Part shown: one piece after another, positions 7,449 to 32,151 of the stretch
How positions within the stretch are numbered: position 1 is the stretch's first letter
Layout of the letters: every line of letters begins with the position of its first letter
From: Bacteroidales bacterium
Lineage (GTDB): Bacteria > Bacteroidota > Bacteroidia > Bacteroidales > UBA7960
Length of the DNA: 37,609 nt
Direction of reading: 5' to 3'
NCBI GenBank assembly: GCA_007122505.1
Contig: SKTQ01000063.1
Location: forward strand, 1-37,609
Position numbers and translations under genes: made by a program
The notes under the pieces: model-generated
Told to the model about the DNA's origin: nothing
Seen by the model: only the letters and a program-made list of their open reading frames with translations
The model's database searches: none

Positions 7449-8228
7449 ATGATGATGGAAAAAGAAAAGGTAGTTGAAGTTCGGAATCTTTTTGCAGCTT
7501 TTGATGACACAATTGTTCTTTCAGATGTTTCTTTTTCTGCATTTAAAGGTGAAGTGTGTGTTATTCTGGGAGGCAGTGGCTCCGGTAAAACCACCCTTCT
7601 GAAACATCTTCTGTCGCTCTATCCGGTAAAAAGAGGATATGTTTCGGTGCTCGGCAAAGATGTTTCTCGTCTGAGGGAAGTTGAACAGGTTGATCTGTAC
7701 CTGCAAATGGGTGTTTTCTACCAAAGTGGAGCACTCATAAACTCATTGACCGTTGCTGAAAATGTCGCCCTCCCTTTGGCACAACATTCAAATCTTCCCA
7801 AATCCCTGATTGATGATATTGTCTATATGAAGTTGGGATTGGTGAATCTCTCTCATGCATTTCACCTTTACCCCTCGCAGCTAAGCGGTGGAATGCTTAA
7901 GCGTGCTGCCCTTGCCCGGGCCATTGTCATGGACCCACCTTTGCTGTTCTGCGATGAACCGGGTGCAGGATTGGACCCTGTTTCGCTGGAATCGCTTGAT
8001 AACCTAATCCTTAACCTGAAAGATAAATTGGGAATGACCATTATCATGGTTACCCACGAAGTTTCCAGTATCCTGCGCGTGGCCAACCGGATCGTGTTTC
8101 TTGATAAGGGTGTAGTGGCATTCGAAGGTCCTTTGATCGACGCCCTGCACGTGGATCAGCCCGCCGTCAGGGAATTCTTCTCTGTATTGGATAACGAAAA
8201 CATCCGGGAACTGATAAAAGCGCAATAG
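7449..8228 (+). CDS. MlaF-like ABC transporter ATP-binding protein
   Basis: Walker A GGSGSGKTT, ABC signature LSGGMLKR, Walker B LLFCDEP. I place the start at the ATG at 7449, 5 nt after the permease stop, rather than at the track start 7383, which overlaps the permease. Confidence 0.85.
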   Translation: MMMEKEKVVEVRNLFAAFDDTIVLSDVSFSAFKGEVCVILGGSGSGKTTLLKHLLSLYPVKRGYVSVLGKDVSRLREVEQVDLYLQMGVFYQSGALINSLTVAENVALPLAQHSNLPKSLIDDIVYMKLGLVNLSHAFHLYPSQLSGGMLKRAALARAIVMDPPLLFCDEPGAGLDPVSLESLDNLILNLKDKLGMTIIMVTHEVSSILRVANRIVFLDKGVVAFEGPLIDALHVDQPAVREFFSVLDNENIRELIKAQ

Positions 8229-8332
8229 AGGAATTAAGGATAGAAGCGCTTTATATTGGATCCGGTTATGAATATGTTTACGAGTTGGCATTCATTGTAA
8301 AAAGACATCCTGCACATAATTAACCACGATTG

Positions 8333-9091
8333 ATGGTAGAAAAAATTAAGAAATATTTGTCTGATTTAGAGGAAGAAAAAGGAATTGAAATTCTTCTTGC
8401 TTGTGAGACAGGTTCGAGAGCATGGGGCTTCCCTTCACCAGACAGTGATTTTGATGTTCGAATTATTTACAAACATGAGAAAGATTGGTATTTAGGTCTG
8501 ACCGAAGAAAAAGACACAATCGAATGTTTTCTTGAAAACAATGAGATTGATATATGCGGTTGGGACTTGAGAAAAAGCCTTCGATTACTTGCAAAATCGA
8601 ATCCCCCTTTGCTCGAAAGAATTCAATCACCGATAATTTATAAAGTTGATAAAGAGTTCCTGACTGGAATTAATTCAGTTGCCCAAAAGACTTATTCAAG
8701 AATTGCCACAATCCACCATTATTTGAGTATGGCAAAAAAGGCATTTGAAGAAGTCGCAAATTCAGATGAATATAAACTGAAAAAATTCTTTTATGCACTT
8801 CGTTCGTCTGTGGCTTGTTTATGGATTTTAGAAAAGGAGGAAATTCCACCAATTGAACTTGGAAAAATGTTAAATGGACTCGATTTACCTGCAATTTTAA
8901 AAACAAGGATTGGAGAACTAATTGAAATAAAGTCATCTATTAGCGAAACTTACTTATATAAAGGTGAGAATGAGTTGATTGAATTCATGAAAGCCTGTAT
9001 TGAAAGAGCGGAAAACGAATCACAAAGTTTGCCAGCTTCAAAATGGAAAATGACTGATTTGAATGATTTTTTTCTCAAAACATTAGATTGA
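8333..9091 (+). CDS. Pol-beta-superfamily nucleotidyltransferase, paralogue 1 (YcgL/RlaP-like, probably Pfam PF10127)
   Basis: 252 aa from the ATG at 8333 (the track starts at the TTG at 8330). NTase signature ETGSRAWGFPSPDSDFDV (GS ... DxD), followed by DICGWDL and the NPPLLERIQSP helix. The coding sequence is AT-rich. Confidence 0.7.
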   Translation: MVEKIKKYLSDLEEEKGIEILLACETGSRAWGFPSPDSDFDVRIIYKHEKDWYLGLTEEKDTIECFLENNEIDICGWDLRKSLRLLAKSNPPLLERIQSPIIYKVDKEFLTGINSVAQKTYSRIATIHHYLSMAKKAFEEVANSDEYKLKKFFYALRSSVACLWILEKEEIPPIELGKMLNGLDLPAILKTRIGELIEIKSSISETYLYKGENELIEFMKACIERAENESQSLPASKWKMTDLNDFFLKTLD

Positions 9092-9094
9092 TTC

Positions 9095-10156
9095 ATGACA
9101 ATTGAGGATTTACGAAACAGAGGAATGATAATACTTGAATGTATTAGTGGAAGTAAAGCATACGGATTAGATACACCGACTTCTGACACTGACATTAAAG
9201 GAGTTTTTATTCTGCCGAAAGCGGAATATTATGGATTGGACTATACTCCTCAGGTGAATAATGAAACAAACAATGTTACATTTTATGAGCTTGGAAGGTT
9301 CATGGAGTTGCTTTCGCTAAACAATCCAAACATTTTGGAATTACTCAACACACCAGAGAATGCCATAATCTATAAGCATCCCTATCTGTCTGAAATTAAA
9401 CCTGAATTGATTTTATCCAAACTTTGCAGTAAAACTTTCGGAAAATTTGCATTATCACAGATTAAAAAAGCGAAAGGGCTAAAAAAGAAGATTGTAAATC
9501 CTGTTGCAAAAGAGCGGAAAAGTGTATTGGCATTTTGTTTTGTTAATTACGAACAAGGAGCGATTCCACTTGAAAAATATTTGGAAATTAAGGGCTGGAA
9601 TCAAGAAAATTGCGGATTAGTGAATATCCCATACATGAAAGATGTTTACGGATTATACTATTCTGAAGGTCTTGGATTCAGTGGAATAATGAAAAGTAAA
9701 GACTCAAATGATGTTTGTTTAAGTTCAATACCAAAAGGAACTAAGCAAGAATCTCTGCTGTATTTTAATCGGGACGGCTACTCGACATATTGCAAGGAAC
9801 ATCGTGAATATTGGGATTGGGTTGGTAAACGAAACGATGAAAGATATGTAAACACTAAAAGTCACGGAAAGAATTATGATGCTAAAAATATGATGCATGT
9901 ATTCAGACTTTTAGAAATGGCTATCGAAATCGGGAAAGAGAAAAAAGTCAATGTAAAAAGACCAAATCGGGATTTTTTATTTGAAATAAAATCAGGTAAA
10001 TTCGAATACGAGGAATTGTTAAAAATGGCTGACATTAAACAGGAGGAAATGGAATTAGCATTTGAAAATTCAGAATTACCAAACGAACCTGATTTGGCAA
10101 CGATAAACAATTTAACTTATAGATTGAGAGATAGATTTTATAAAGACAAAGAATAA
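9095..10156 (+). CDS. Pol-beta-superfamily nucleotidyltransferase, paralogue 2, with a ~240-aa C-terminal extension
   Basis: 353 aa. NTase signature ISGSKAYGLDTPTSDTDI (GS ... DxD), followed by FYELG and the NPNILELLNTP helix, colinear with paralogue 1. It starts 3 nt after the upstream stop. Confidence 0.7.
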   Translation: MTIEDLRNRGMIILECISGSKAYGLDTPTSDTDIKGVFILPKAEYYGLDYTPQVNNETNNVTFYELGRFMELLSLNNPNILELLNTPENAIIYKHPYLSEIKPELILSKLCSKTFGKFALSQIKKAKGLKKKIVNPVAKERKSVLAFCFVNYEQGAIPLEKYLEIKGWNQENCGLVNIPYMKDVYGLYYSEGLGFSGIMKSKDSNDVCLSSIPKGTKQESLLYFNRDGYSTYCKEHREYWDWVGKRNDERYVNTKSHGKNYDAKNMMHVFRLLEMAIEIGKEKKVNVKRPNRDFLFEIKSGKFEYEELLKMADIKQEEMELAFENSELPNEPDLATINNLTYRLRDRFYKDKE

Positions 10157-10296
10157 ACAACGAAATACCAACATCATGTGTAATGCATTGGAATTTAGTT
10201 GTTTGTGTGAAATATTCTGCCCCGAATCGGCTTTTGCAACGGCAGACAGACAAGAAGCCCGCATACCCCAACGTTTCATACATTTGACCGTTGGGC

Positions 10297-10368
10297 CCAA
10301 GCGAAAAAACGCACCCTTTCATTAGCCAAATTAACTGATTTTTTTTATTGTATGACCAAGCGAAAAAC
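10297..10368 (+). repeat. 12-nt direct repeat in a non-coding spacer
   Basis: ccaagcgaaaaa occurs at 10297-10308 and again at 10356-10367. Confidence 0.6.
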
Positions 10369-10395
10369 AATAATTATTAAGAAAAAGTATCAGAC

Positions 10396-10534
10396 CTCCT
10401 GATCCTGCCACTGAATATCAATTAGCTAAAACTCTTGTGGTAAAAAAAACAGCCACAAAGCGCTGCACTGAGTTTGTCGAAGTGGCACAAAGGATACAAA
10501 AAATGCGACACCAAGAACTGCAACAGATCAGGAG
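10396..10534. repeat. 9-bp inverted repeat bracketing ~120 nt of spacer
   Basis: ctcctgatc at 10396-10404 and gatcaggag at 10526-10534. Internally there is a 6-bp stem, ttgtgg (10435-10440) / ccacaa (10453-10458), and a ctgagtttgtcgaagtggc motif. Confidence 0.5.
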
Positions 10535-10595
10535 TTCAGAAGTATAGAATTACACCCCTGTTTGAGAATATTCACAAAGAAGGAATTAGGCTGAA

Positions 10596-10700
10596 ATGAC
10601 AGGAACAACAAAAGATTTAATTAACTATCGAATTGAGAGGGCAAAGGAAACTCTGGAAGACGCTAAACTATTGACCGAAAAACAGCTGTGGAATTCTACC
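10596..10700 (+). pseudogene. Truncated 5' fragment of a HEPN-domain (HEPN/MNT toxin-type) gene
   Basis: The first ~35 codons (MTGTTKDLINYRIERAKETLEDAKLLTEKQLWNSTI) match the characteristic N-terminus of small HEPN proteins (..Y R.. RAKETLEEAKLL.. ). Resemblance stops at about 10700, where the reading frame runs antisense into the next gene. There is no RxxxxH region. Confidence 0.5.
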
Positions 10701-10702
10701 AT

Positions 10703-10927
10703 TTACATCCCGGCAATGCCCTGTGTATTTTCCTTCAAATCCTTATTGCTTTCACAGTCTTCCGGGATACCGGAGGCACAGGAGCACGGTTTTTGCTTTC
10801 CTGAATCCGGATCGTAAGTGCTTGTACAAGACTTTGTAAAGGTTTCACCGGGCTTAATGAACATTTTAATGGCAATGCCTCCTATGGCAAGTGCCAGCAG
10901 TATAACGGCTAAAATAATGGCTTCCAT
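10703..10927 (-). CDS. Small single-pass Cys-rich membrane protein (NqrM/DUF539-like or FeoB-associated Cys-rich type)
   Basis: 74 aa. N-terminal TM helix (MEAIILAVILLALAIGGIAIKMF) followed by a four-Cys pattern C-x13-CxC-x7-C. Architecture and size resemble NqrM. Confidence 0.5.
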   Translation of the reverse strand: MEAIILAVILLALAIGGIAIKMFIKPGETFTKSCTSTYDPDSGKQKPCSCASGIPEDCESNKDLKENTQGIAGM

Positions 10928-11053
10928 AGCTTAATGTGCTTTTTCTTTGTTTTTTTGATGATGATGATTTATTGCAAAGAAATACGTCTCTGCATCTTAA
11001 AAAAAAACCAACAATCAAATACTGAATAAATAACAAACAACCGGGCTGAATGT

Positions 11054-11833
11054 TCAGGTTGCGGCCGTTTTGCTGCGTATGCAAGCCATCAGGATGCCTG
11101 CGGCCATGGCGGCGTTCAGCGATTCAGCCACTTCAAATTGCTGACTCTCTTTTCCGGAAGGAATCGATATTTTTTTTTGGGCCGCTTTCAATATTTTTTC
11201 TGACAATCCTTTGGACTCATTACCGATCACGATAGCCGCCGGCAAGGTAAAAGACATATTGTGGAGGCTCTCTCCACCGGTTGAAGCTGCATATACAGGA
11301 ATTTGACTGCTGTTATTCTTGATAAAAGTCAGGATATCGGTGTAATACAAACGGGTTCGCAAAAATGACCCCATGCTTGCCTGGATAACCTTTGGGTTAT
11401 ACAAGTCGGCAGTATCGGGCGAGCAAAATATATGCCGCACACCAAACCAATCGGCGGTGCGTATGATGGTTCCCAGGTTGCCGGGATCCTGCAAATTTTC
11501 TAGAATAAGAATCAGATCATCTTTTGCAAAGGCCGCAGGTGGGGTGTGCTGAGGCTTATTAACCACTGCCAGCACCCGGTTTGGGCTTTTAAGGCTGCTG
11601 ATCCGCTCAAGCTGCTTTGGACTGACCGTTACTTTGTCCACATTTTCAGGAATGTGTGCTTCCATCTCCTCTATCCAGTCAACTGTGGCGTAAACCGATA
11701 CAACATCTGCAAAATCCGAAGCGATCAGCTCCTGTACGATCTTTTCTCCTTCAGCAACAAACTGATGGTGCCGGTCGCGGAACTTTTTCATTTGCAGCGA
11801 CCTGATGTGCTTTAGCTGGGTTGTTGTGATCAT
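11054..11833 (-). CDS. TrmH/SpoU-family RNA 2'-O-methyltransferase
   Basis: 259 aa. SpoU-type motifs (LENLQDPGNLGTIIRTA, IVIGNESKGLS, SLNAAMAAGILM) and an N-terminal substrate-binding domain. Confidence 0.85.
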   Translation of the reverse strand: MITTTQLKHIRSLQMKKFRDRHHQFVAEGEKIVQELIASDFADVVSVYATVDWIEEMEAHIPENVDKVTVSPKQLERISSLKSPNRVLAVVNKPQHTPPAAFAKDDLILILENLQDPGNLGTIIRTADWFGVRHIFCSPDTADLYNPKVIQASMGSFLRTRLYYTDILTFIKNNSSQIPVYAASTGGESLHNMSFTLPAAIVIGNESKGLSEKILKAAQKKISIPSGKESQQFEVAESLNAAMAAGILMACIRSKTAAT

Positions 11834-11910
11834 ATGTTTATTAAAGCACCGAAGTTAAGAACAATATTGGTATTGAAGTCCGTTTCATCATTTACCTGCA
11901 GGCCTGAAAC

Positions 11911-11944
11911 AAAAAAACCTGTCATATAAGCGACAGGTTTTTTT
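11911..11944 (-). terminator. Rho-independent terminator after rplI
   Basis: Stem cctgtc / gacagg (11918-11923 and 11932-11937), flanked by A7 and T7, so a T-run follows on the minus strand. Confidence 0.7.
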
Positions 11945-11961
11945 ATAGAGCCTATGAATAA

Positions 11962-12411
11962 CTATTCACCAAAAACCTCGAATTTCAGTTCCGGGCGTAC
12001 TTCCTTGTGCAAATTGATTTTTGCAGAATATATGCCCACTTCCTTGATGGCATCACCGTCGAGCATGATTTTCTTACGGTCAATTTCAAGGCCGAATTGT
12101 TCTTTAATGGCTTCCGCAATTTGCAATGCATTTACAGAACCGAAGATTTTTCCGGATGTACCCACTTTGGCGGCAATCCGAACTTCGATATCCTGCAGTT
12201 TTTCGGCCATTTTTTCCGCTTCCTTCCGGACCTTTTCTTCCTTGAACTCACGCTGCCGGATGGTTTCGGCCAGCTTCTTCTTTTCAGAAGGGATGGCAAT
12301 GATGGCTAAGCCTTTTGGAATAAGATAGTTGGTGGCGTAACCGTCTTTCACGGTAACCAGATCGTCTTTGAACCCCAGGTTGGGAACGTCTTGTTTTAAA
12401 ATGATTTCCAT
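11962..12411 (-). CDS. rplI: 50S ribosomal protein L9
   Basis: 149 aa. MEIILKQDVPNLGFKDDLVTVKDGYATNYLIPKGLA is a canonical L9 N-terminus. Last gene of rpsF-rpsR-rplI. Confidence 0.95.
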   Translation of the reverse strand: MEIILKQDVPNLGFKDDLVTVKDGYATNYLIPKGLAIIAIPSEKKKLAETIRQREFKEEKVRKEAEKMAEKLQDIEVRIAAKVGTSGKIFGSVNALQIAEAIKEQFGLEIDRKKIMLDGDAIKEVGIYSAKINLHKEVRPELKFEVFGE

Positions 12412-12423
12412 TATTGTACCTCC

Positions 12424-12696
12424 CTATTTTAAAAGATCCGCTACATAAGGCATAATGGCCAGATGACGAGCCCTTTTAATGGCTTTGGCCACTTTGCGCT
12501 GATACTTTACCGATGTTCCGGTGATCCTTCTGGGAAGGATCTTGCCCTGCTCGTTTACAAACTTCAGCAGGAAATTGGCATCCTTGTAGTCAATATATTT
12601 GATGCCCGCCTTCTTGAAGCGGCAGTATTTTTTCTTTTTGATATCCACAGCAATGGGTGCCAGGTATCTTATTTCTGAATTCTGTTGTACAGCCAT
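12424..12696 (-). CDS. rpsR: 30S ribosomal protein S18
   Basis: 90 aa. The YIDYKD...[25 protein letters not shown]...AIKRAR motifs are typical of S18. Confidence 0.95.
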
Positions 12697-12723
12697 GTTT
12701 CAATGTTTTTTAGGTACTACCTT

Positions 12724-13089
12724 TTAGTTTTCTTTTTCTCCTTCTGTTTCCTTAACGGCTTCCTTTTCACGCCGTTTTTTCTCGTTGTAGGCAACGGCGT
12801 GCTTGTCCAACGCTACAGTGAGAAAACGTATCACTTTCTCGTCACGCTTCATCTCCAGCTCAAGGTCTTTCACCAGCTGGGTGTCGGCTTTGAACTCTAT
12901 CAGGTGATAAAAACCGGTGGATTTTTTTTGGATCGGATAGGCCATTTTGCGCAAGCCCCAATGGTCCTCATACACAATCTCTGCCCCCTTGTTTTTCAGG
13001 TAGTCCTGAAACTTACTTACCGTTTCCTTCATCTGTTCATCAGACAAAACGGGAGTCATAATGAAAACGGTTTCGTACTGTCTTACCAT
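12724..13089 (-). CDS. rpsF: 30S ribosomal protein S6
   Basis: The canonical S6 N-terminus [13 protein letters not shown] begins at the internal ATG at 13089. The track's upstream extension to 13140 is probably not translated. Confidence 0.9.
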
Positions 13090-13255
13090 TTTGATTTGTT
13101 TAATGTGTTTGTAATGATTTTCAATTATCCGTTTTAACATGCATTATTCATGCTTTTAATTTAGGTCAGATGCAAGGCGTCGAAAGCCGCTGACATAGTA
13201 TTCTATTTCAAGGCTTTCGCAACGAAGCAGATGGCCTGAAGTAAAAGCACTTGAA
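13090..13255 (-). promoter_or_regulatory. Candidate structured 5' leader of the rpsF operon
   Basis: On the minus strand, an 8-bp stem cgaaagcc (13214-13221 on the plus axis) / ggctttcg (13181-13188) with a ~25-nt loop lies 90-130 nt upstream of the rpsF ATG. A near-consensus -7 box, tcaatttg, lies just upstream. A leader RNA that binds S6:S18 is known in many phyla. Confidence 0.3.
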
Positions 13256-13468
13256 AAAAGGAAACAAATTGAGTTTTTGCAATTTTTTGATCTTATTATT
13301 CATTTATTCAGGTTAATACAACAATTTGTTTGCTTTTTGTGAATAATGCAGGCTATAAAACGAGGTGCAAAGGTAATCAAAAATTTTAAATCAAAGCACT
13401 GAAAATTGGATATTTCATCAGCATGCCGGAAGTAAAAAATATCTGAAAAAAGAAAAGCGAAAGCAGGA

Positions 13469-15070
13469 TCATTCTTTGCCTTCAACCTTCCGGTAAGGTA
13501 CAATGCGATAATAATCGGAGGGATAGATGCCCGCGGAGATAAGTATTTGTCTCAGTGTAAATTGCACATTCAATTGTTTTACCGTACCCAGACTGTCCAG
13601 GTCGAAGGTGACAAATTTTTCGCGCATGGACCGGTTTCGCCAGTGGGCACGGAAGGTGTCAAAATGCCAGTGTTCAAGGTCTGCAATCATCTCTTCATCA
13701 TTCCATAGTTGCATCACCAGGTGCCCATCCTCATGGAGTCTGATTTCAGCATTGTCATAAACCTGGTGTTTATAGTTACCTGCATATGCTTCCAGCGGCA
13801 GGGAAGGTGAGGTGCCTGATTGTCTTTGATCTTCAATGGCCTGCCGACTTTCCAGGGTTTCAGTTTTCAGTGTGGTGAATTGGTCAAAATAGTATGCATG
13901 CCAGTCTTTTGCCTCCTCAGTCTCAAGAATGGCATCCAGGATGGTATAGATCACCGCTGGTCTGAAACTACAGTACAGGTTGCTGGCCACAATGATTCCC
14001 AGGTCTTTTTCGGGCATGAGTAACAAAAAAGAGGTCATGCCGTCGGTGGCTCCGCTGTGTTGCGATACCCTGTAACCCTTGTATTCCCTGAGCCCCCATC
14101 CAAGGCCGTATCCTGTCAGCGGATCACGCAGGGGGTCATCAATGGGGAATACCTGGTGGGGCTGGTGGGTTTCAAGAATATTTTCCTTGCTGATCAGTTG
14201 TTGTCCATTGTAGGTTCCCGGTTCGCCCAGATGCAAAAGCATCCAGCGGGCCATATCGGTCACCGATGCATTTACCGAAGCGGCGGGACCCACATTGTCA
14301 AAATTGCGGCGGGGTATCACCACAACCTCACCGAATATTTCCTGGTGAGGCCATGCGGCATTGTCCAGGTTATCCAGCTGATTTATGGATGTGCTTGCCG
14401 TGGTCATCTGCAGTGGCAAAAACAATCGTTCGCTCATGAAGTCATCCCAGCTCGACCCTGAAACGGCTTCAATGATCTGTCCGGCAACCATATACATGAT
14501 GTTGCTGTACACATAACCTGCACGGAAGGTTTGTTCAAATGGCATATGCCTGACAAAGTCCATGATGGTTTCCGGGTCCCGGCCGGGCATAAAACGTAAC
14601 CTGTTTCCTGTCAGCCGTCCAATGCCCACCCGGTGTGATAACAGATCGCGCACGGTAATATGCTCGCTAACCCAGGGATCCGATAGTGTAAACCATGGCA
14701 AATGGTCACGAACCCTGTCGTCCCAAGCCATTTTGCCTTCGTCAACCAGCATCGCTATGGCGGCGGTTGTCATGGCTTTGGTAAGGGATGCCATCCCGAA
14801 AACCGTACGTTCATCAACCGCTTCACCGGAACCCAGTTTTCGCTCGCCAAATCCTTTAGCATATACCAGTTCTCCTTCCATTACAACAGCGACAGCCATA
14901 CCGGGAATACCATAATCGGCCATTCCGCGCTCCATGAAAGCAGGCAGGCCGGCAAGCTTTTGCTGTACAAATTCTTGAAGGTTTTCATGGTTCTCTCCAT
15001 ATGCCGCTGCCGGGGGAAATAATCCCAATAACAAAATCAGGAGAAAAAATGCGCTTGTTTTTTGCTGCAT
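13469..15070 (-). CDS. Secreted serine hydrolase, class-C beta-lactamase/PBP-like family with a C-terminal extra domain
   Basis: 533 aa. Signal peptide, SxxK motif (ASLTKAMT), YxN motif (YVYSNIMY), and a ~130-aa C-terminal lipocalin-like tail, as in DUF3471-containing hydrolases. Confidence 0.85.
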   Translation of the reverse strand: MQQKTSAFFLLILLLGLFPPAAAYGENHENLQEFVQQKLAGLPAFMERGMADYGIPGMAVAVVMEGELVYAKGFGERKLGSGEAVDERTVFGMASLTKAMTTAAIAMLVDEGKMAWDDRVRDHLPWFTLSDPWVSEHITVRDLLSHRVGIGRLTGNRLRFMPGRDPETIMDFVRHMPFEQTFRAGYVYSNIMYMVAGQIIEAVSGSSWDDFMSERLFLPLQMTTASTSINQLDNLDNAAWPHQEIFGEVVVIPRRNFDNVGPAASVNASVTDMARWMLLHLGEPGTYNGQQLISKENILETHQPHQVFPIDDPLRDPLTGYGLGWGLREYKGYRVSQHSGATDGMTSFLLLMPEKDLGIIVASNLYCSFRPAVIYTILDAILETEEAKDWHAYYFDQFTTLKTETLESRQAIEDQRQSGTSPSLPLEAYAGNYKHQVYDNAEIRLHEDGHLVMQLWNDEEMIADLEHWHFDTFRAHWRNRSMREKFVTFDLDSLGTVKQLNVQFTLRQILISAGIYPSDYYRIVPYRKVEGKE

Positions 15071-29181: not shown

Positions 29182-29224
29182 CAAAATGAAAGGGATAATA
29201 TATATTTGGAAGAATGTTACAACA

Positions 29225-29725
29225 TCATGCTGATTTCAGTGCTTCCATAAGCTTTTTACGGGTAAAGAAAATCCGGCTTTTAACTGTTCCGATAGATAGA
29301 TTCAGCTTTTCGGCAATTTCCTTGTATTTATAACCGTTGTTGTACATCTCAAATGGCAGGCGCTGCTCTTCGCTGATGCTTTCAACCACCTTGGTAATCT
29401 CTTTGAGTGAATAGTCAGAGTCGGGAAGGCCAATGCTGCTTTCCTGCGAGAGATTGAGGTAGTACAGATCATCTGTTTTGTCCAGGATGGTGTTATTTCT
29501 CACATTTTGCCTGTAATTGTTGATGAAGGTGTTTTTCATGATGGTGAAAGTCCAAGCCTTTAAATTGGTGTTTTCTGTGAACTTATCACGGTTGGTAATC
29601 GCTTTCAGAAAAGTTTCCTGAACCAGGTCCTGGGCATCCTCATAGTTGGATGTTAAGGTGTAGGCAAAATATTTCAGGTTCTTCTGGAGTCCCAGTAATT
29701 TGTAGTTAAATTCAAGTGCTGTCAT
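29225..29725 (-). CDS. ECF-subfamily RNA polymerase sigma-70 factor
   Basis: 166 aa. Region 2 (DAQDLVQETFLKA...AWTFTIMKN) and the region 4 HTH (YKYKEIAEKLNLSIGTVKSRIFFTRKKL). No anti-sigma gene is adjacent. Confidence 0.85.
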   Translation of the reverse strand: MTALEFNYKLLGLQKNLKYFAYTLTSNYEDAQDLVQETFLKAITNRDKFTENTNLKAWTFTIMKNTFINNYRQNVRNNTILDKTDDLYYLNLSQESSIGLPDSDYSLKEITKVVESISEEQRLPFEMYNNGYKYKEIAEKLNLSIGTVKSRIFFTRKKLMEALKSA

Positions 29726-29753
29726 GACGGTTGTGGTTTTAGTTGTTCAAATG

Positions 29754-29769
29754 TTGTATTACAAAATTA
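29754..29769 (-). promoter_or_regulatory. -7 promoter box (TAATTTTG) overlapped by an 11-nt perfect palindrome, upstream of the ECF sigma gene
   Basis: The minus-strand TAATTTTG corresponds to plus 29762-29769. The palindrome ttgtattacaa at 29754-29764 overlaps its 3' end, 29 nt upstream of the ATG at 29725. Confidence 0.45.
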
Positions 29770-30180
29770 AACAAAAAAATTTATCGCACAAACGTTTTAA
29801 AACTTTTTAACAAAACATGTTGAGTAAATATAGCGTTTGGTGTGCACAAAAAATCTGTTTGGCAGACAAAAATAAGCAATACAATGCGTATTTAAAAGGG
29901 TTTCATGTTTAATTTATGTTAAAGATTGTGCGGTTTATTGCAGCGAGAGTATGATAACAAAGGGTTAAAATCTTTGCAGCTTGGTTCTTTCGGCCATTGA
30001 AAATAAAGCTTGAAAAGAGGTGGTTGTGTTTAACGTCCTGCCTCAACAGATTATATGAAATATTTTTATCGAAACAGGAAAACACAATAATCAGGTCATG
30101 GATATGAATAAATGACTTGTTGAACCATGTGGCTCAATCTTGCATTATGCAATTACGAAATTTGCTCAGGAGAAATGTTT

Positions 30181-31068
30181 TTAGAGGGCTTTCAGTTTTT
30201 CTTTGAATTCTTCCACATCTTTTACAGGAACTACATTTGCAGGCAAATTGATCCCTTTCTGGAATATCTGGTATCCGGTAACGAATATTTTTTGGTGGCT
30301 AAAGTTTTCGGAAAGCTTTTGCAAATAATCCGGAATCTCTTTGGCATTCATGGCAGCCACAAAATAGGTAAAAAGATAATCGGCTTTTCGAATTTTCAAT
30401 ACCTCCAATACATCATCAAAAGGTACCGACTGACCGAGATATATCACCTTGAAACCATTCTTTTTAAGAATGAAACTGTAAAACAGCAAGCCTAGCTCAT
30501 GTAATTCGTTTTCAGGCAGAAACAGCAGAAAGGTTTTTGCATCCTGTGCCGTGGGCTTTGCCTGTCCGTCGATGGCAATGATGATTTTCTGGCGTACCAG
30601 GTTGGTGATAAAGTGTTCCTGGGCTGGGTTGATATTGTCGATTAACCAGAGAACACCCACTTTTTCCAGGAACGGATACAAAACATGGGTAACACACTTT
30701 TCAAATCCAAGCTTCAGAATAGCTGTGTTGAGCGTATGTTCAAAAACATCTTCGCTCATTTCAATCATTGAAACCACCAGGTTGTTGATCATGGTATCAT
30801 AATCACCGTGCGTACCTGCAATTTCCATGATCTTTTCGTTGATCTCTGCATCATCCATTTTGGCGATATTGGAGATCTTGAAGCCATGTTTGTTAAGGGT
30901 GCTGATATTCAGTATTTTTTTTAGATCACAATTGTGATAATACCGGATATTGGTATCGGTTCTTTTTGGTTCAATTATACCATAGCGCTTCTCCCATATA
31001 CGGATGGTATGGGCTTTTATACCGCTTAGTTTTTCCAGGTCATTAATGGAGAAGCGATGGGTATGCAT
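30181..31068 (-). CDS. MerR-family transcriptional regulator with a B12-binding C-terminal module (CarH/LitR-like)
   Basis: 295 aa. MerR HTH (FSINDLEKLSGIKAHTIRIWEKRYG), a helical-bundle domain with a W-x9-EH motif (VLWLIDNINPAQEHF), and a Rossmann-like domain with ExHxxG (ENELHELG). The downstream SxL/GG motifs are degenerate. Confidence 0.8.
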   Translation of the reverse strand: MHTHRFSINDLEKLSGIKAHTIRIWEKRYGIIEPKRTDTNIRYYHNCDLKKILNISTLNKHGFKISNIAKMDDAEINEKIMEIAGTHGDYDTMINNLVVSMIEMSEDVFEHTLNTAILKLGFEKCVTHVLYPFLEKVGVLWLIDNINPAQEHFITNLVRQKIIIAIDGQAKPTAQDAKTFLLFLPENELHELGLLFYSFILKKNGFKVIYLGQSVPFDDVLEVLKIRKADYLFTYFVAAMNAKEIPDYLQKLSENFSHQKIFVTGYQIFQKGINLPANVVPVKDVEEFKEKLKAL

Positions 31069-31233
31069 TTTGTCGTTTTTAAAGTCAGATATTCAACCAA
31101 TAAACGTTAACAAATAAAAAAAGTTCATGGTTTGTTCAATTAAAATAAAATACTTATATTGTGGGGCATAAAAATCCGGACGGAGATATTACAGGCCTAA
31201 TCTTCAATATAATATTCTCATTAAAAATTAAAA

Positions 31234-32142
31234 ATGAAAACCATGGAGTTAAACAATTTAGAAGTCACAGAGCAGCCGGAGGGTTTCCGGTTTGCCAGCA
31301 TCCGAGAGCTGGTAAACCGAACCCTCAACCAAAACTTCGGCTCCCCCATTAACAGGGACAACGTATCCAGCGGGTTCAAAGAACTCGACAAAGCATTGGG
31401 TGGATTTCAGAATGGACAATTATATACGATTGCGGTTAAACCAGGAATGGGGAAAACCGCTTTTTTGTTGTCCATTACCAACAACATGGCTATTAAAGAC
31501 AACTATTCGGTAGCCATTTTTTCGTCGGAAAGATCCAACCAAAAGATGACAAACCGGCTTATTGAAACAGAAACCGGTATGTCATTAAGCCAGCTTCAGT
31601 CAGGTAGCTTCAAAGAGAGTGAGCGTGATCATCTTCTTTCCATGCTCAGCAACATTGCAAAGGCCAAGATATTTATGGACGACACACCGGCTTTGTCAAC
31701 CTCTTTGTTTGCAAAAAAGATCAAAGAGCTCAAGCAGCGGCAACACATTGATCTGGTTATTATTGATTATCTGGAGTTGCTCACCACCGACATCGGGCAG
31801 AAGAATGACCGCCCGGCTCAATTGGGCAGCATCGTGAAAGAATTGCGCGACATTGCTTCTGCATTGGATATTCCGGTCCTCCTGTTTTCCCAGTCTGCCG
31901 GATTTACCAATGGCTATCCCGGCGAAAAACGCCCTTCAATGGAGGCTCTGCCTGCATTTTTGAAAGATCATTCAGATGTTTGCATGTTACTGCACCGCAA
32001 CATTTTTTTGCCTGTGAAACCAAAATCCTCTGCGATGCAGGCCGTCGAGTTGTACGCAATTCACCGGGACAACCCGGATAAAGAAATTATTGTGCCGCTC
32101 AACTTTATTGAAAGCATTGCAAAATTCACCGATTTTTCTTAA
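31234..32142 (+). CDS. DnaB C-terminal-domain-only (RecA-fold) ATPase
   Basis: 302 aa. Colinear with DnaB motifs H1 (KPGMGKTAFLL), H1a (FSSERS), H2 (LVIIDYLELL), H3 (FSQS) and H4 region (LLHRN). It lacks the DnaB N-terminal domain. Confidence 0.75.
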   Translation: MKTMELNNLEVTEQPEGFRFASIRELVNRTLNQNFGSPINRDNVSSGFKELDKALGGFQNGQLYTIAVKPGMGKTAFLLSITNNMAIKDNYSVAIFSSERSNQKMTNRLIETETGMSLSQLQSGSFKESERDHLLSMLSNIAKAKIFMDDTPALSTSLFAKKIKELKQRQHIDLVIIDYLELLTTDIGQKNDRPAQLGSIVKELRDIASALDIPVLLFSQSAGFTNGYPGEKRPSMEALPAFLKDHSDVCMLLHRNIFLPVKPKSSAMQAVELYAIHRDNPDKEIIVPLNFIESIAKFTDFS

Positions 32143-32151
32143 AAAGACCAG

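Follow-up and report, generated by a model that had tools for sequence, protein, structure and literature searches.

Introduction

RlaP proteins, which reportedly received their name from Burroughs and Aravind in 2016, form a family of nucleotidyltransferases (NTases; Pfam PF10127). The first biochemistry of the family was published in December 2025 as a preprint (Carruthers, Fatma and Huang, PMC12776372), in which PfRlaP and PaRlaP of Pseudomonas were found to append 1-2 nucleoside monophosphates (NMPs) to RNA 3'-OH ends, with a preference for Mn2+ and with no activity on DNA and protein. These enzymes favour the broken end of a cleaved-tRNA mimic, partly restore the aminoacylation of a nucleotide-deprived tRNA and also label full-length tRNA-sized RNAs in vitro; PfRlaP's crystal structure shows an NTase domain and a C-terminal helical domain separated by a cleft, and the Pseudomonas rlaP genes are situated between rtcB and rtcA (PMC12776372). 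RlaP-type NTases are also present in phages, T4 NrdC.11 being counted among them (PMC12776372), and it has been proposed that the phage proteins put back the nucleotides that cleaved tRNAs have lost (PMC7824862). Here we describe two adjacent open reading frames (ORFs), ORF A and ORF B, which encode two different RlaP-type proteins and are carried together on an integron-type gene cassette. They are found in a stretch of 37,609 nucleotides from a Bacteroidales bacterium (assembly GCA_007122505.1, contig SKTQ01000063.1, positions 1 to 37,609), hereafter called the window.

The A-B pair shares with PfRlaP and PaRlaP the Pfam family, the N-terminal Pol-beta NTase, followed by what is predicted to be a C-terminal helical domain, and three conserved acidic residues; in addition, homologous A-B pairs and fusions also occur in rtcB/rtcA operons. 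The Pseudomonas enzymes are single genes, whereas the window contains two diverged, adjacent and co-inherited paralogues, which are fused in other phyla. Moreover, one of the two paralogues has an inserted beta subdomain of ~80 aa, no ligase is encoded nearby, and the pair is known from sequence.

The other term of comparison is the integron cassette. Integrons have been reported in Bacteroidota (PMC8618304), and solitary cassettes at genomic GTT sites have been described as SALIN/attG (Loot et al., 10.1101/2022.09.11.507474). As in integron cassettes, in clusters of attC sites lacking an integron integrase (CALINs) and in SALINs (Cury et al. 2016), the ORFs of the A-B cassette are promoterless and precede an imperfect, attC-like palindrome whose boxes are AAC...GTT, and the boundaries are at G/TT (here and below, the slash marks the boundary). 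One-orientation multi-cassette arrays, as known from integrons, are found in other genomes, and the window copy, like a SALIN, is a lone cassette away from any array. The system differs from integron cassettes in three respects: no IntI integrase, attI site or Pc promoter was found in the flanks covered, the sites are long (125-145 nt) and make up a sequence family of their own, and an IS91-type transposase accompanied by a Xer-like recombinase is repeatedly found next to them.

Results

ORF A and ORF B encode paralogous RlaP-type nucleotidyltransferases

ORF A, which can be read from a TTG at 8330 or from an ATG at 8333, and ORF B lie on the same strand and are separated by 3 nt (ORF A stop codon at 9089-9091, ORF B ATG at 9095; Table 1). 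The two proteins are paralogous, since BLASTP aligns them across 89 aa with 34% identity (E = 4e-11). The alignment pairs D39xD41 of A with D31xD33 of B, and D78 of A with E65 of B; together with G27-S28 in A and G19-S20 in B, these are the catalytic residues of the two proteins, and D37 and D73 of A are conserved too. The catalytic residues are invariant or nearly so in A orthologues, in B orthologues and phage homologues, and in 60 natural A-B fusions. With respect to the PF10127 profile, whose gathering threshold is 23 bits, A gives a full-length match of 239.1 bits (model positions 1-248 of 249) and B a match of 76.1 bits limited to residues 11-126 (model positions 19-140). Both proteins also match phage families over their full length, A phrog_14344 and B phrog_388 (E values in Table 1), and B is 74-93% identical among its best 120 clusters.

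Other searches were negative. No relevant protein was found for A or B by sequence in a PDB set from which PfRlaP was absent, and the NCBIfam profiles gave no meaningful family for either. In PADLOC-DB 2.0 the best match of A had an E value of 0.031 (12.4 bits) and B had none, so that no defence-system model was matched; on the MntA model NF047752, A scored 15.5 bits as compared to a cut-off of 60, which places it outside the MNT-HEPN (type VII) systems. By their profile matches, A and B are members of the known RlaP family and not uncharacterised proteins. A sequence-only reading of this stretch, made without database searches, had pointed out the two neighbouring same-strand paralogues and their retained catalytic carboxylates and had likened them to PF10127, and the BLASTP, orthologue and Pfam results agree with it on all these points. 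It had also described the pair as uncharacterised, with no defined biochemistry, a description that the activity of RlaP on RNA 3'-OH ends has overtaken (PMC12776372), and had left a C-terminal region of ~240 aa in B without assignment.

This region was examined on an AlphaFold2 model of B, built on an alignment of 60 diverse B-type proteins; the source of the alignment was an exhaustive search of cluster representatives, which gave 5806 matches at E <= 1e-3 and 493 at E <= 1e-30. The model is confident (predicted local distance difference test, pLDDT, 95.1; predicted template modelling score, pTM, 0.82) and divides into four parts: the NTase domain spans residues 1-106, a long helix 110-134, the inserted beta subdomain ~144-224 and the helical domain 226-352. 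Among predicted viral structures (BFVD) it matched many phage "nucleotidyltransferases", with E values down to 8e-16, and it matched short RlaP-like phage models over nearly the full length (TMt up to 0.79). The fold search of the PDB set without PfRlaP gave weak matches to ANT(4'), LinB, Hailong HalB and MNT (E >= 0.01), those to ANT(4') and LinB having E = 0.01-0.1 and TM of about 0.2-0.3, and very weak ones to cGAS (E about 1-2). When the profiles of A and B were compared with hhalign, the NTase domain alone could be aligned. Because the model is confident and matches viral RlaP-like structures, B is predicted to be a long RlaP, with a helical domain and an inserted beta subdomain, and not an NTase fused to a foreign domain; the unassigned part of the protein would thus consist of these two elements.

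The most conserved motif of the C-terminal part is HGKxYD/xKNMMH (residues 257-268 of the window B). In the B-type homologue P0167 (~700 aa) an intein-like insertion of ~340 aa splits it between HGKxYD and xKNMMH; the location of the insertion singles the motif out as functionally critical. Four other homologues of the same ~700-aa length (P0169, P0186, P0198 and P0246) have their alignment broken at query residue 263.

The pair is conserved as a two-gene module and is naturally fused

A scan of GTDB with one genome per species gave at least 519 loci with a relative of B, of which the best 80 were kept (L001-L080). These 80 loci belong mostly to Bacteroidota, of many orders, and a few are labelled Ignavibacteriae, Alcanivoracaceae, Marinicellaceae, Nealsonbacteria or Hyphomicrobiales. 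Full-length A is directly upstream of B in 68 of them, with gaps between -4 and +39 nt, mostly of 1-5 nt, and the remaining 12 are mostly frameshifted copies or copies cut by a contig end. The identities of A and of B to the window copies are strongly correlated (r = 0.92, n = 70). When all flanking ORFs were clustered, no other gene family recurred in more than 3 of the 80 loci; therefore, the A-B module is self-contained. Metagenomes, scanned independently, yielded 29 tight A-to-B pairs, 2 fusions, 12 loci with A and B separated by larger gaps and 15 loci with A only. In six metagenome loci (L099, L102, L118, L119, L127 and L132) the A and B parts are 0.5-1.3 kb apart, or the match spans ~2.7 kb; inteins, or insertions in either gene or between them, could account for this.

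The closest named copy of the pair is that of Natronoflexus pectinivorans (SLWK01000027.1, L083:2130-6717), with 93% identity for B and 91% for A. After the pair come genes for a 232-aa unknown protein, a 781-aa DEAD-box helicase and a SLFN_AlbA_2/HATPase_c_4 protein, a setting that looks like a defence island, unlike that of the window.

A and B are also found in a single chain. The 619-aa protein P0128 consists of A (33% identity, E = 2e-43) followed by B, and at least 120 clusters, 600-640 aa long, span 97-100% of its length; all those with a name come from Verrucomicrobiota (Luteolibacter, Roseibacillus and Akkermansiaceae). In the structural model of the fusion both modules fold well (pLDDT 91.8), with a pTM of 0.58. 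Two of the five fusion loci inspected have Rtc/Ro60 neighbours: in L085 the fusion is beside RtcR, Ro60 and RtcB, and in L086 the order is RtcR / Ro60-RtcB-RtcA-fusion. A Rtc or Ro60 gene was likewise present in the flank of 8 of the 29 tight pairs of the metagenome sample, and in L108, L125, L128 and L146 RtcB directly adjoins the pair (Pfam E = 1e-78 to 1e-110). The occurrence of A and B as a fusion in Verrucomicrobiota, and in or beside RtcB/RtcA/RtcR/Ro60 operons elsewhere, indicates RNA-end repair. One fusion locus adjoins ParE/Phd.

In phages the two types are distributed differently from the bacterial pair. The A type is present in phiKZ-like jumbo phages and the B type in rV5-like, Lak, PTm1 and other phages, with tblastn identities of 30-40%; each phage genome examined contains one type and never an A-to-B pair, whereas the bacterial pair is a chromosomal cassette. 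Distant B-type proteins are found alone in phages and also in bacteria. PTm1 ORF-149, which is A-sized and upstream of the B homologue, was considered as a phage partner of the A type, but it is unrelated to A. In Cronobacter phage CR8 (rV5-like; L081:1708-3024) the B-type NTase is ~2 kb downstream of a predicted tRNA (CCA-adding) nucleotidyltransferase, an arrangement suggestive of a region for the maintenance of tRNA ends.

The pair is carried on a gene cassette with an attC-like site

The nucleotide sequence of the window between 8284 and 10190/10300 is 80-91% identical to that of L001, L003, L002, L006 and L007 (blastn), and the similarity is confined to this interval. It begins at GTTGGCATTC, 49 nt ahead of the ATG of ORF A, and ends at CCG/TT in every copy, after a non-coding tail of ~135 nt; the sequence beyond is unrelated. 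Every copy begins at G/TTGGCATTC, directly after the preceding site, so that the same cassette is found with different neighbours. The leader is conserved in L001, L006, L008-L010, L012 and L013 and, more loosely, in L005, L020, L029, L032 and L068. It contains no sigma-70-like promoter, and the promoter/terminator scan gave nothing above the expectation from shuffled sequence. Shortly after the stop codon of ORF B, AAATGCCAAC is the reverse complement of the first bases of the cassette.

The tail has the architecture of an attC site (Table 1). RNAalifold, applied to an unfitted MAFFT alignment of seven tails, gave a long-range imperfect stem with compensatory changes in 10 of 15 pairs. A covariance model built from the tail (R1) recognises the window site with 114 bits, as the sole match in the window even with filters off. 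In an alignment of 26 sites, 92.5% of cells pair, as compared to 28-40% (about 30%) in slid controls, and 14 of the 15 L-stem pairs are changed on both sides; this alignment was fitted to the covariance model, which favours structure, and the margin over the slid controls is large. The sites are 125-145 nt long. In the window copy, R'' carries a G to A change and two L''/L' pairs are mismatched, and it looks partly decayed. Folded alone as single-stranded DNA, the window tail gives three local hairpins and not the long-range stem, which is what the comparative alignment shows. Rfam gave chance-level matches only on 8100-11100, and no further notable repeats were seen around the cassette, apart from a perfect 12-nt direct repeat, CCAAGCGAAAAA, at 10297 and 10356, directly past the cassette GTT.

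Table 1. Coordinates of the cassette, of its parts and of the adjoining remnant in the window
Feature	Position	Strand	Description
ORF A	8333..9091	+	short canonical RlaP nucleotidyltransferase, 252 aa; PF10127 E = 8e-71, phrog_14344 E = 1e-61
ORF B	9095..10156	+	long RlaP-type nucleotidyltransferase, 353 aa; PF10127 E = 4.6e-21, phrog_388 E = 8e-49
Complete cassette	8285..10290	+	2006 bp; leader, ORF A, ORF B and attC-like site; crossovers G8284/T8285 and G10290/T10291
Cassette leader	8285..8332	+	48 nt (TTGGCATTCATTGTAAAAAGACATCCTGCACATAATTAACCACGATTG); begins with the reverse complement of the R'' box that follows the stop codon
attC-like site	10157..10296	+	R'' 10165-10172 (ATACCAAC), L'' 10177-10193, variable centre, L' 10266-10282, R' GTT 10290-10292
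Decayed second mobile unit	10297..10700	+	MNT-like ORF C-terminus 10474-10599 and first ~35 HEPN codons from 10596

Arrays of cassettes and associated recombinases in other genomes

Sites of the same family form arrays in other genomes, all in the same (+) orientation: 8-9 sites in L010, 4 in L012, 3 in L029 and 6-7 in L032. In L010 each site directly follows an ORF or a pair of ORFs. Genomes that carry arrays include Dokdonia sp. R86516 (NZ_CP138998.1, around 3.264-3.281 Mb), OY781463.1 (around 4.21-4.23 Mb), OY782882.1 and DINQ01000016.1. Proteins with no Pfam domain are encoded by most of the neighbouring cassettes; LRR, Fic, AbiGi/DUF4238 and Barstar-like proteins are among the rest. No integron integrase, attI or Pc was found near the arrays in the flank covered, which is at most 8-10 kb on each side, and for this reason an integrase located further away would escape notice. 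A unit made of a Xer/IntI-like tyrosine recombinase and an IS91-type Y2_Tnp adjoins attC-like sites once in L001 and twice in L011 (L001:2425-4452; L011:2515-4589 and 11587-13658; a further unit position is L175:6943-7527), and a Y2_Tnp fragment lies within the L012 array. The recombinases of L001 and L011 score 160-166 bits on the integrase model TIGR02249, whose cut-off is 265, and similarly on Xer models. The unit could represent an element targeting attC-like sites, or it could be what moves the cassettes.

The window copy is an acquired insertion between housekeeping genes

The flanks of the cassette are of housekeeping type. MlaD, an auxiliary lipoprotein, MlaE and MlaF are encoded upstream; downstream, the opposite strand carries a small membrane ORF, the gene for a SpoU-type methyltransferase and rplI-rpsR-rpsF. 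In the nearest relative, L176 (GCA_007695305.1), whose methyltransferase is 77% identical, the gene order is identical, and the distance from the small ORF to mlaF is 80 nt, as compared to about 2.4 kb in the window; homology to L176 picks up again at the small membrane ORF. Since synteny is identical in L176 and the site is empty there, the pair is an acquired insertion and not part of the core genome. GC content is 0.335-0.37 across 8000-10500 and 0.43-0.47 in the flanks.

Between the cassette and the native sequence, which resumes at about 10700-10716, lies the remnant of a second unit, cut at this point and read by means of frame translations. Its MNT-like C-terminal sequence ends '...ITPLFENIHKEGIRLK' and is followed by the HEPN fragment, whose Pfam match is weak (E = 0.08). 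The HEPN fragment at 10596 is part of this separate decayed unit and is not a partner of A-B. The sequence-only reading had described an AT-rich islet, a decayed HEPN gene next to the pair, and a mobile, accessory and self-contained two-gene module. The islet is confirmed by the GC profile, and the HEPN gene is there, if weak and preceded by the decayed MNT-like C-terminus; the view of the module is borne out by the recurrence of A and B alone among the neighbours of the 80 loci and by the empty site of the closest relative. The mechanism of mobility, i.e. the integron-type cassette with its attC-like site, was absent from that account.

The nucleotide identity of the cassette is about 91% to L001 (Cryomorphaceae) and L003 (Pararhodonellum) and 90% to L002 (Thermonemataceae), with protein identities of 89-93% to copies in other orders. 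The adjacent SpoU-type methyltransferase shows 77%, and then <=55%, protein identity to relatives with usable contigs. The cassette thus appears, on these identities, to have spread horizontally between orders of Bacteroidota. The host is poorly sampled: the methyltransferase (11054-11833) has one 98% relative, on contigs under 2 kb, before those at 77% and <=55%. No tRNA gene is present in the window. A second low-GC stretch (0.35-0.40) at 29200-32150 encodes an ECF sigma factor, a CarH/LitR-like regulator of the MerR family with B12-binding domains and a protein of 302 aa made only of a DnaB C-terminal-type domain.

Discussion

We favour the interpretation, to which we assign a probability of roughly 0.6, that A and B make up a two-subunit RlaP, i.e. 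an RNA 3'-end nucleotidyltransferase with two active sites devoted to anti-ribotoxin RNA repair and carried on a stand-alone integron-type cassette. We infer that A and B associate physically as the subunits of a bipartite RlaP-type RNA 3'-terminal nucleotidyltransferase. Two active sites are proposed because each subunit has a complete Pol-beta catalytic set, and the distance of 3 nt between the genes suggests that the subunits would be made together by coupled translation. By analogy with the single-gene RlaPs, the complex would extend the 3'-OH of RNAs that have been broken or trimmed, for example tRNA halves, by one or a few NMPs. Nucleotides removed by a ribotoxin might be restored in this way before religation by a ligase encoded elsewhere (of the RtcB type), or the 3' end might be rebuilt directly. 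The cassette is inserted alone between the mla operon and the decayed MNT/HEPN remnant, and it probably owes its transcription to read-through from that operon. A precedent for a two-subunit RlaP is offered by the ANT(4')/LinB enzymes, which are dimeric and have active sites built across the subunits. These enzymes, too, combine a minimal NTase domain with a helical domain; they differ in that their substrates are antibiotics and not RNA, and their similarity to B is weak.

Several points weigh against this interpretation. The occurrence of distant B types alone means that B need not always have A, and the pTM of the fusion model indicates no confident packing of the A module on the B module. 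Genes for an RNA ligase, a cyclase, a kinase/phosphatase or Ro60 are absent from the window and from the 80 Bacteroidota-type loci, so the RNA-ligase neighbourhood after which RlaP is named (RtcB, RtcA, RtcR, Ro60) was not encountered there; three of the five fusion loci and 21 of the 29 tight pairs are likewise devoid of a Rtc gene in the flank covered. The proposed repair role of the window pair is thus based on homologues found elsewhere. Furthermore, RlaP products end in 3'-OH and are not directly ligatable by RtcB, a difficulty raised in the preprint itself, and the biochemistry of the family comes from this one preprint on single-gene Pseudomonas RlaPs, to which A and B are tied at the level of the Pfam family (PMC12776372).

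The pair might instead be a conflict module, of the toxin-antitoxin or abortive-infection kind, in which one NTase blocks translation through tRNA 3' ends and the paralogue regulates or reverses this effect. NTase toxins of the MenT and AbiEii type are reported to add nucleotides to tRNA 3' ends. These toxins and the MNT-HEPN (type VII) systems resemble A-B in being Pol-beta-fold NTases in two-gene mobile modules, some of which act on tRNA 3' ends; they belong, however, to other families, and here the partner is a second NTase with an intact catalytic set and not a HEPN protein or an antitoxin. The pair does travel as an integron-type cassette; toxin-antitoxin and defence systems are common among two-gene cassettes, and the term defence "biobanks" has been applied to cassettes (10.1101/2024.07.02.601686). 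There are also the AbiGi/DUF4238, Fic and Barstar-like genes in nearby cassettes, the MNT/HEPN remnant adjoining the window copy, the DEAD helicase and SLFN_AlbA_2/HATPase_c_4 genes near the N. pectinivorans copy, the ParE/Phd beside one fusion, and the labelling of full-length tRNA-sized RNAs by RlaP in vitro (PMC12776372). We nevertheless regard a conflict module as unlikely, given the absence of a PADLOC match, the MntA score far below its cut-off and the retention of every catalytic residue by both paralogues. A stable fusion in at least 120 clusters would be unusual for a toxin and its antidote, fast-evolving defence genes are rarely as conserved as B is among its best 120 clusters, and homologous pairs and fusions are embedded in RtcB/RtcA operons.

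It is about as improbable that A and B are independent enzymes which travel together and, with no complex between them, act on different RNA ends or add nucleotides successively, much as CCA synthesis is split between separate CC-adding and A-adding enzymes in some bacteria. Both active sites are complete, each type is found alone in phages and in some bacteria, and the low pTM of the fusion would agree with such independence; the tight gaps of 1-5 nt, the correlated divergence and the widespread fusion fit a joint function best, even though the fusion is no proof of a shared active site. That the pair synthesises a nucleotide second messenger for signalling or defence, as CD-NTase/cGAS-like enzymes do, is highly improbable. 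Both proteins are NTases of the Pol-beta superfamily and there are two active sites, but no effector or receptor gene is conserved near the 80 loci, the fold matches to cGAS are very weak, the best ones being to ANT(4')/LinB-type transferases and the MNT fold, and the characterised members of the family act on RNA ends. The sequence-only reading had seen no recognisable partner near the pair and had taken it for a candidate signalling or defence system. The first statement stands for the window and the 80 related loci; the second does not, since no PADLOC model is matched and the Rtc/Ro60 linkage of homologues elsewhere indicates RNA-end repair.

A different doubt concerns the sites. They may be something other than integron attC, for example another structured repeat or a recombination site used by a Xer-like recombinase together with IS91-type Y2 transposases, which we consider possible, though doubtful. 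No recombinase reaches the curated integrase cut-off, units of recombinase and Y2_Tnp lie beside the sites in L001 and, twice, in L011, with a Y2_Tnp fragment in L012, and the length of 125-145 nt falls at the upper end of attC lengths. On the other hand, the architecture of attC is matched throughout (AAC box after the stop codon, bulged imperfect stem, variable centre, terminal GTT and G/TT boundaries), the first bases of the cassette are complementary to its own R'' box, and the sites of an array share their orientation, each directly after an ORF or ORF pair. Integrons have been reported in Bacteroidota (PMC8618304), and a distant integrase would be missed in flanks of 8-10 kb.

The family, its chemistry and the principle of the cassette are already known. 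What appears to be new, as far as searched, is the paired or fused architecture of RlaP and its spread on a cassette in Bacteroidota. The attC-like family and its arrays provide a handle on cassette systems of Bacteroidota, a phylum whose integrons have received little attention. A bolder view, which we hold to be quite unlikely, is that A and B form an obligate enzyme with two active sites that restores a defined length of the RNA 3' end and spreads by itself as a "ribotoxin-immunity" cassette, and that the arrays of Bacteroidota are serviced by a Xer-like tyrosine recombinase with IS91-type Y2 transposases in place of a canonical integron integrase; if true, such arrays would represent a distinct cassette-capture system. 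For the two-subunit RlaP that we favour, the first biochemistry of the family covers single-gene enzymes, and a widespread two-subunit or fused form, with both active sites intact, bears on how the addition of nucleotides is limited or directed in RNA repair. An RNA-repair enzyme would circulate as a stand-alone integron-type cassette, with about 91% DNA identity across orders of Bacteroidota, which suggests an exchange of resistance to RNA-cleaving toxins similar to that of other traits carried on cassettes.

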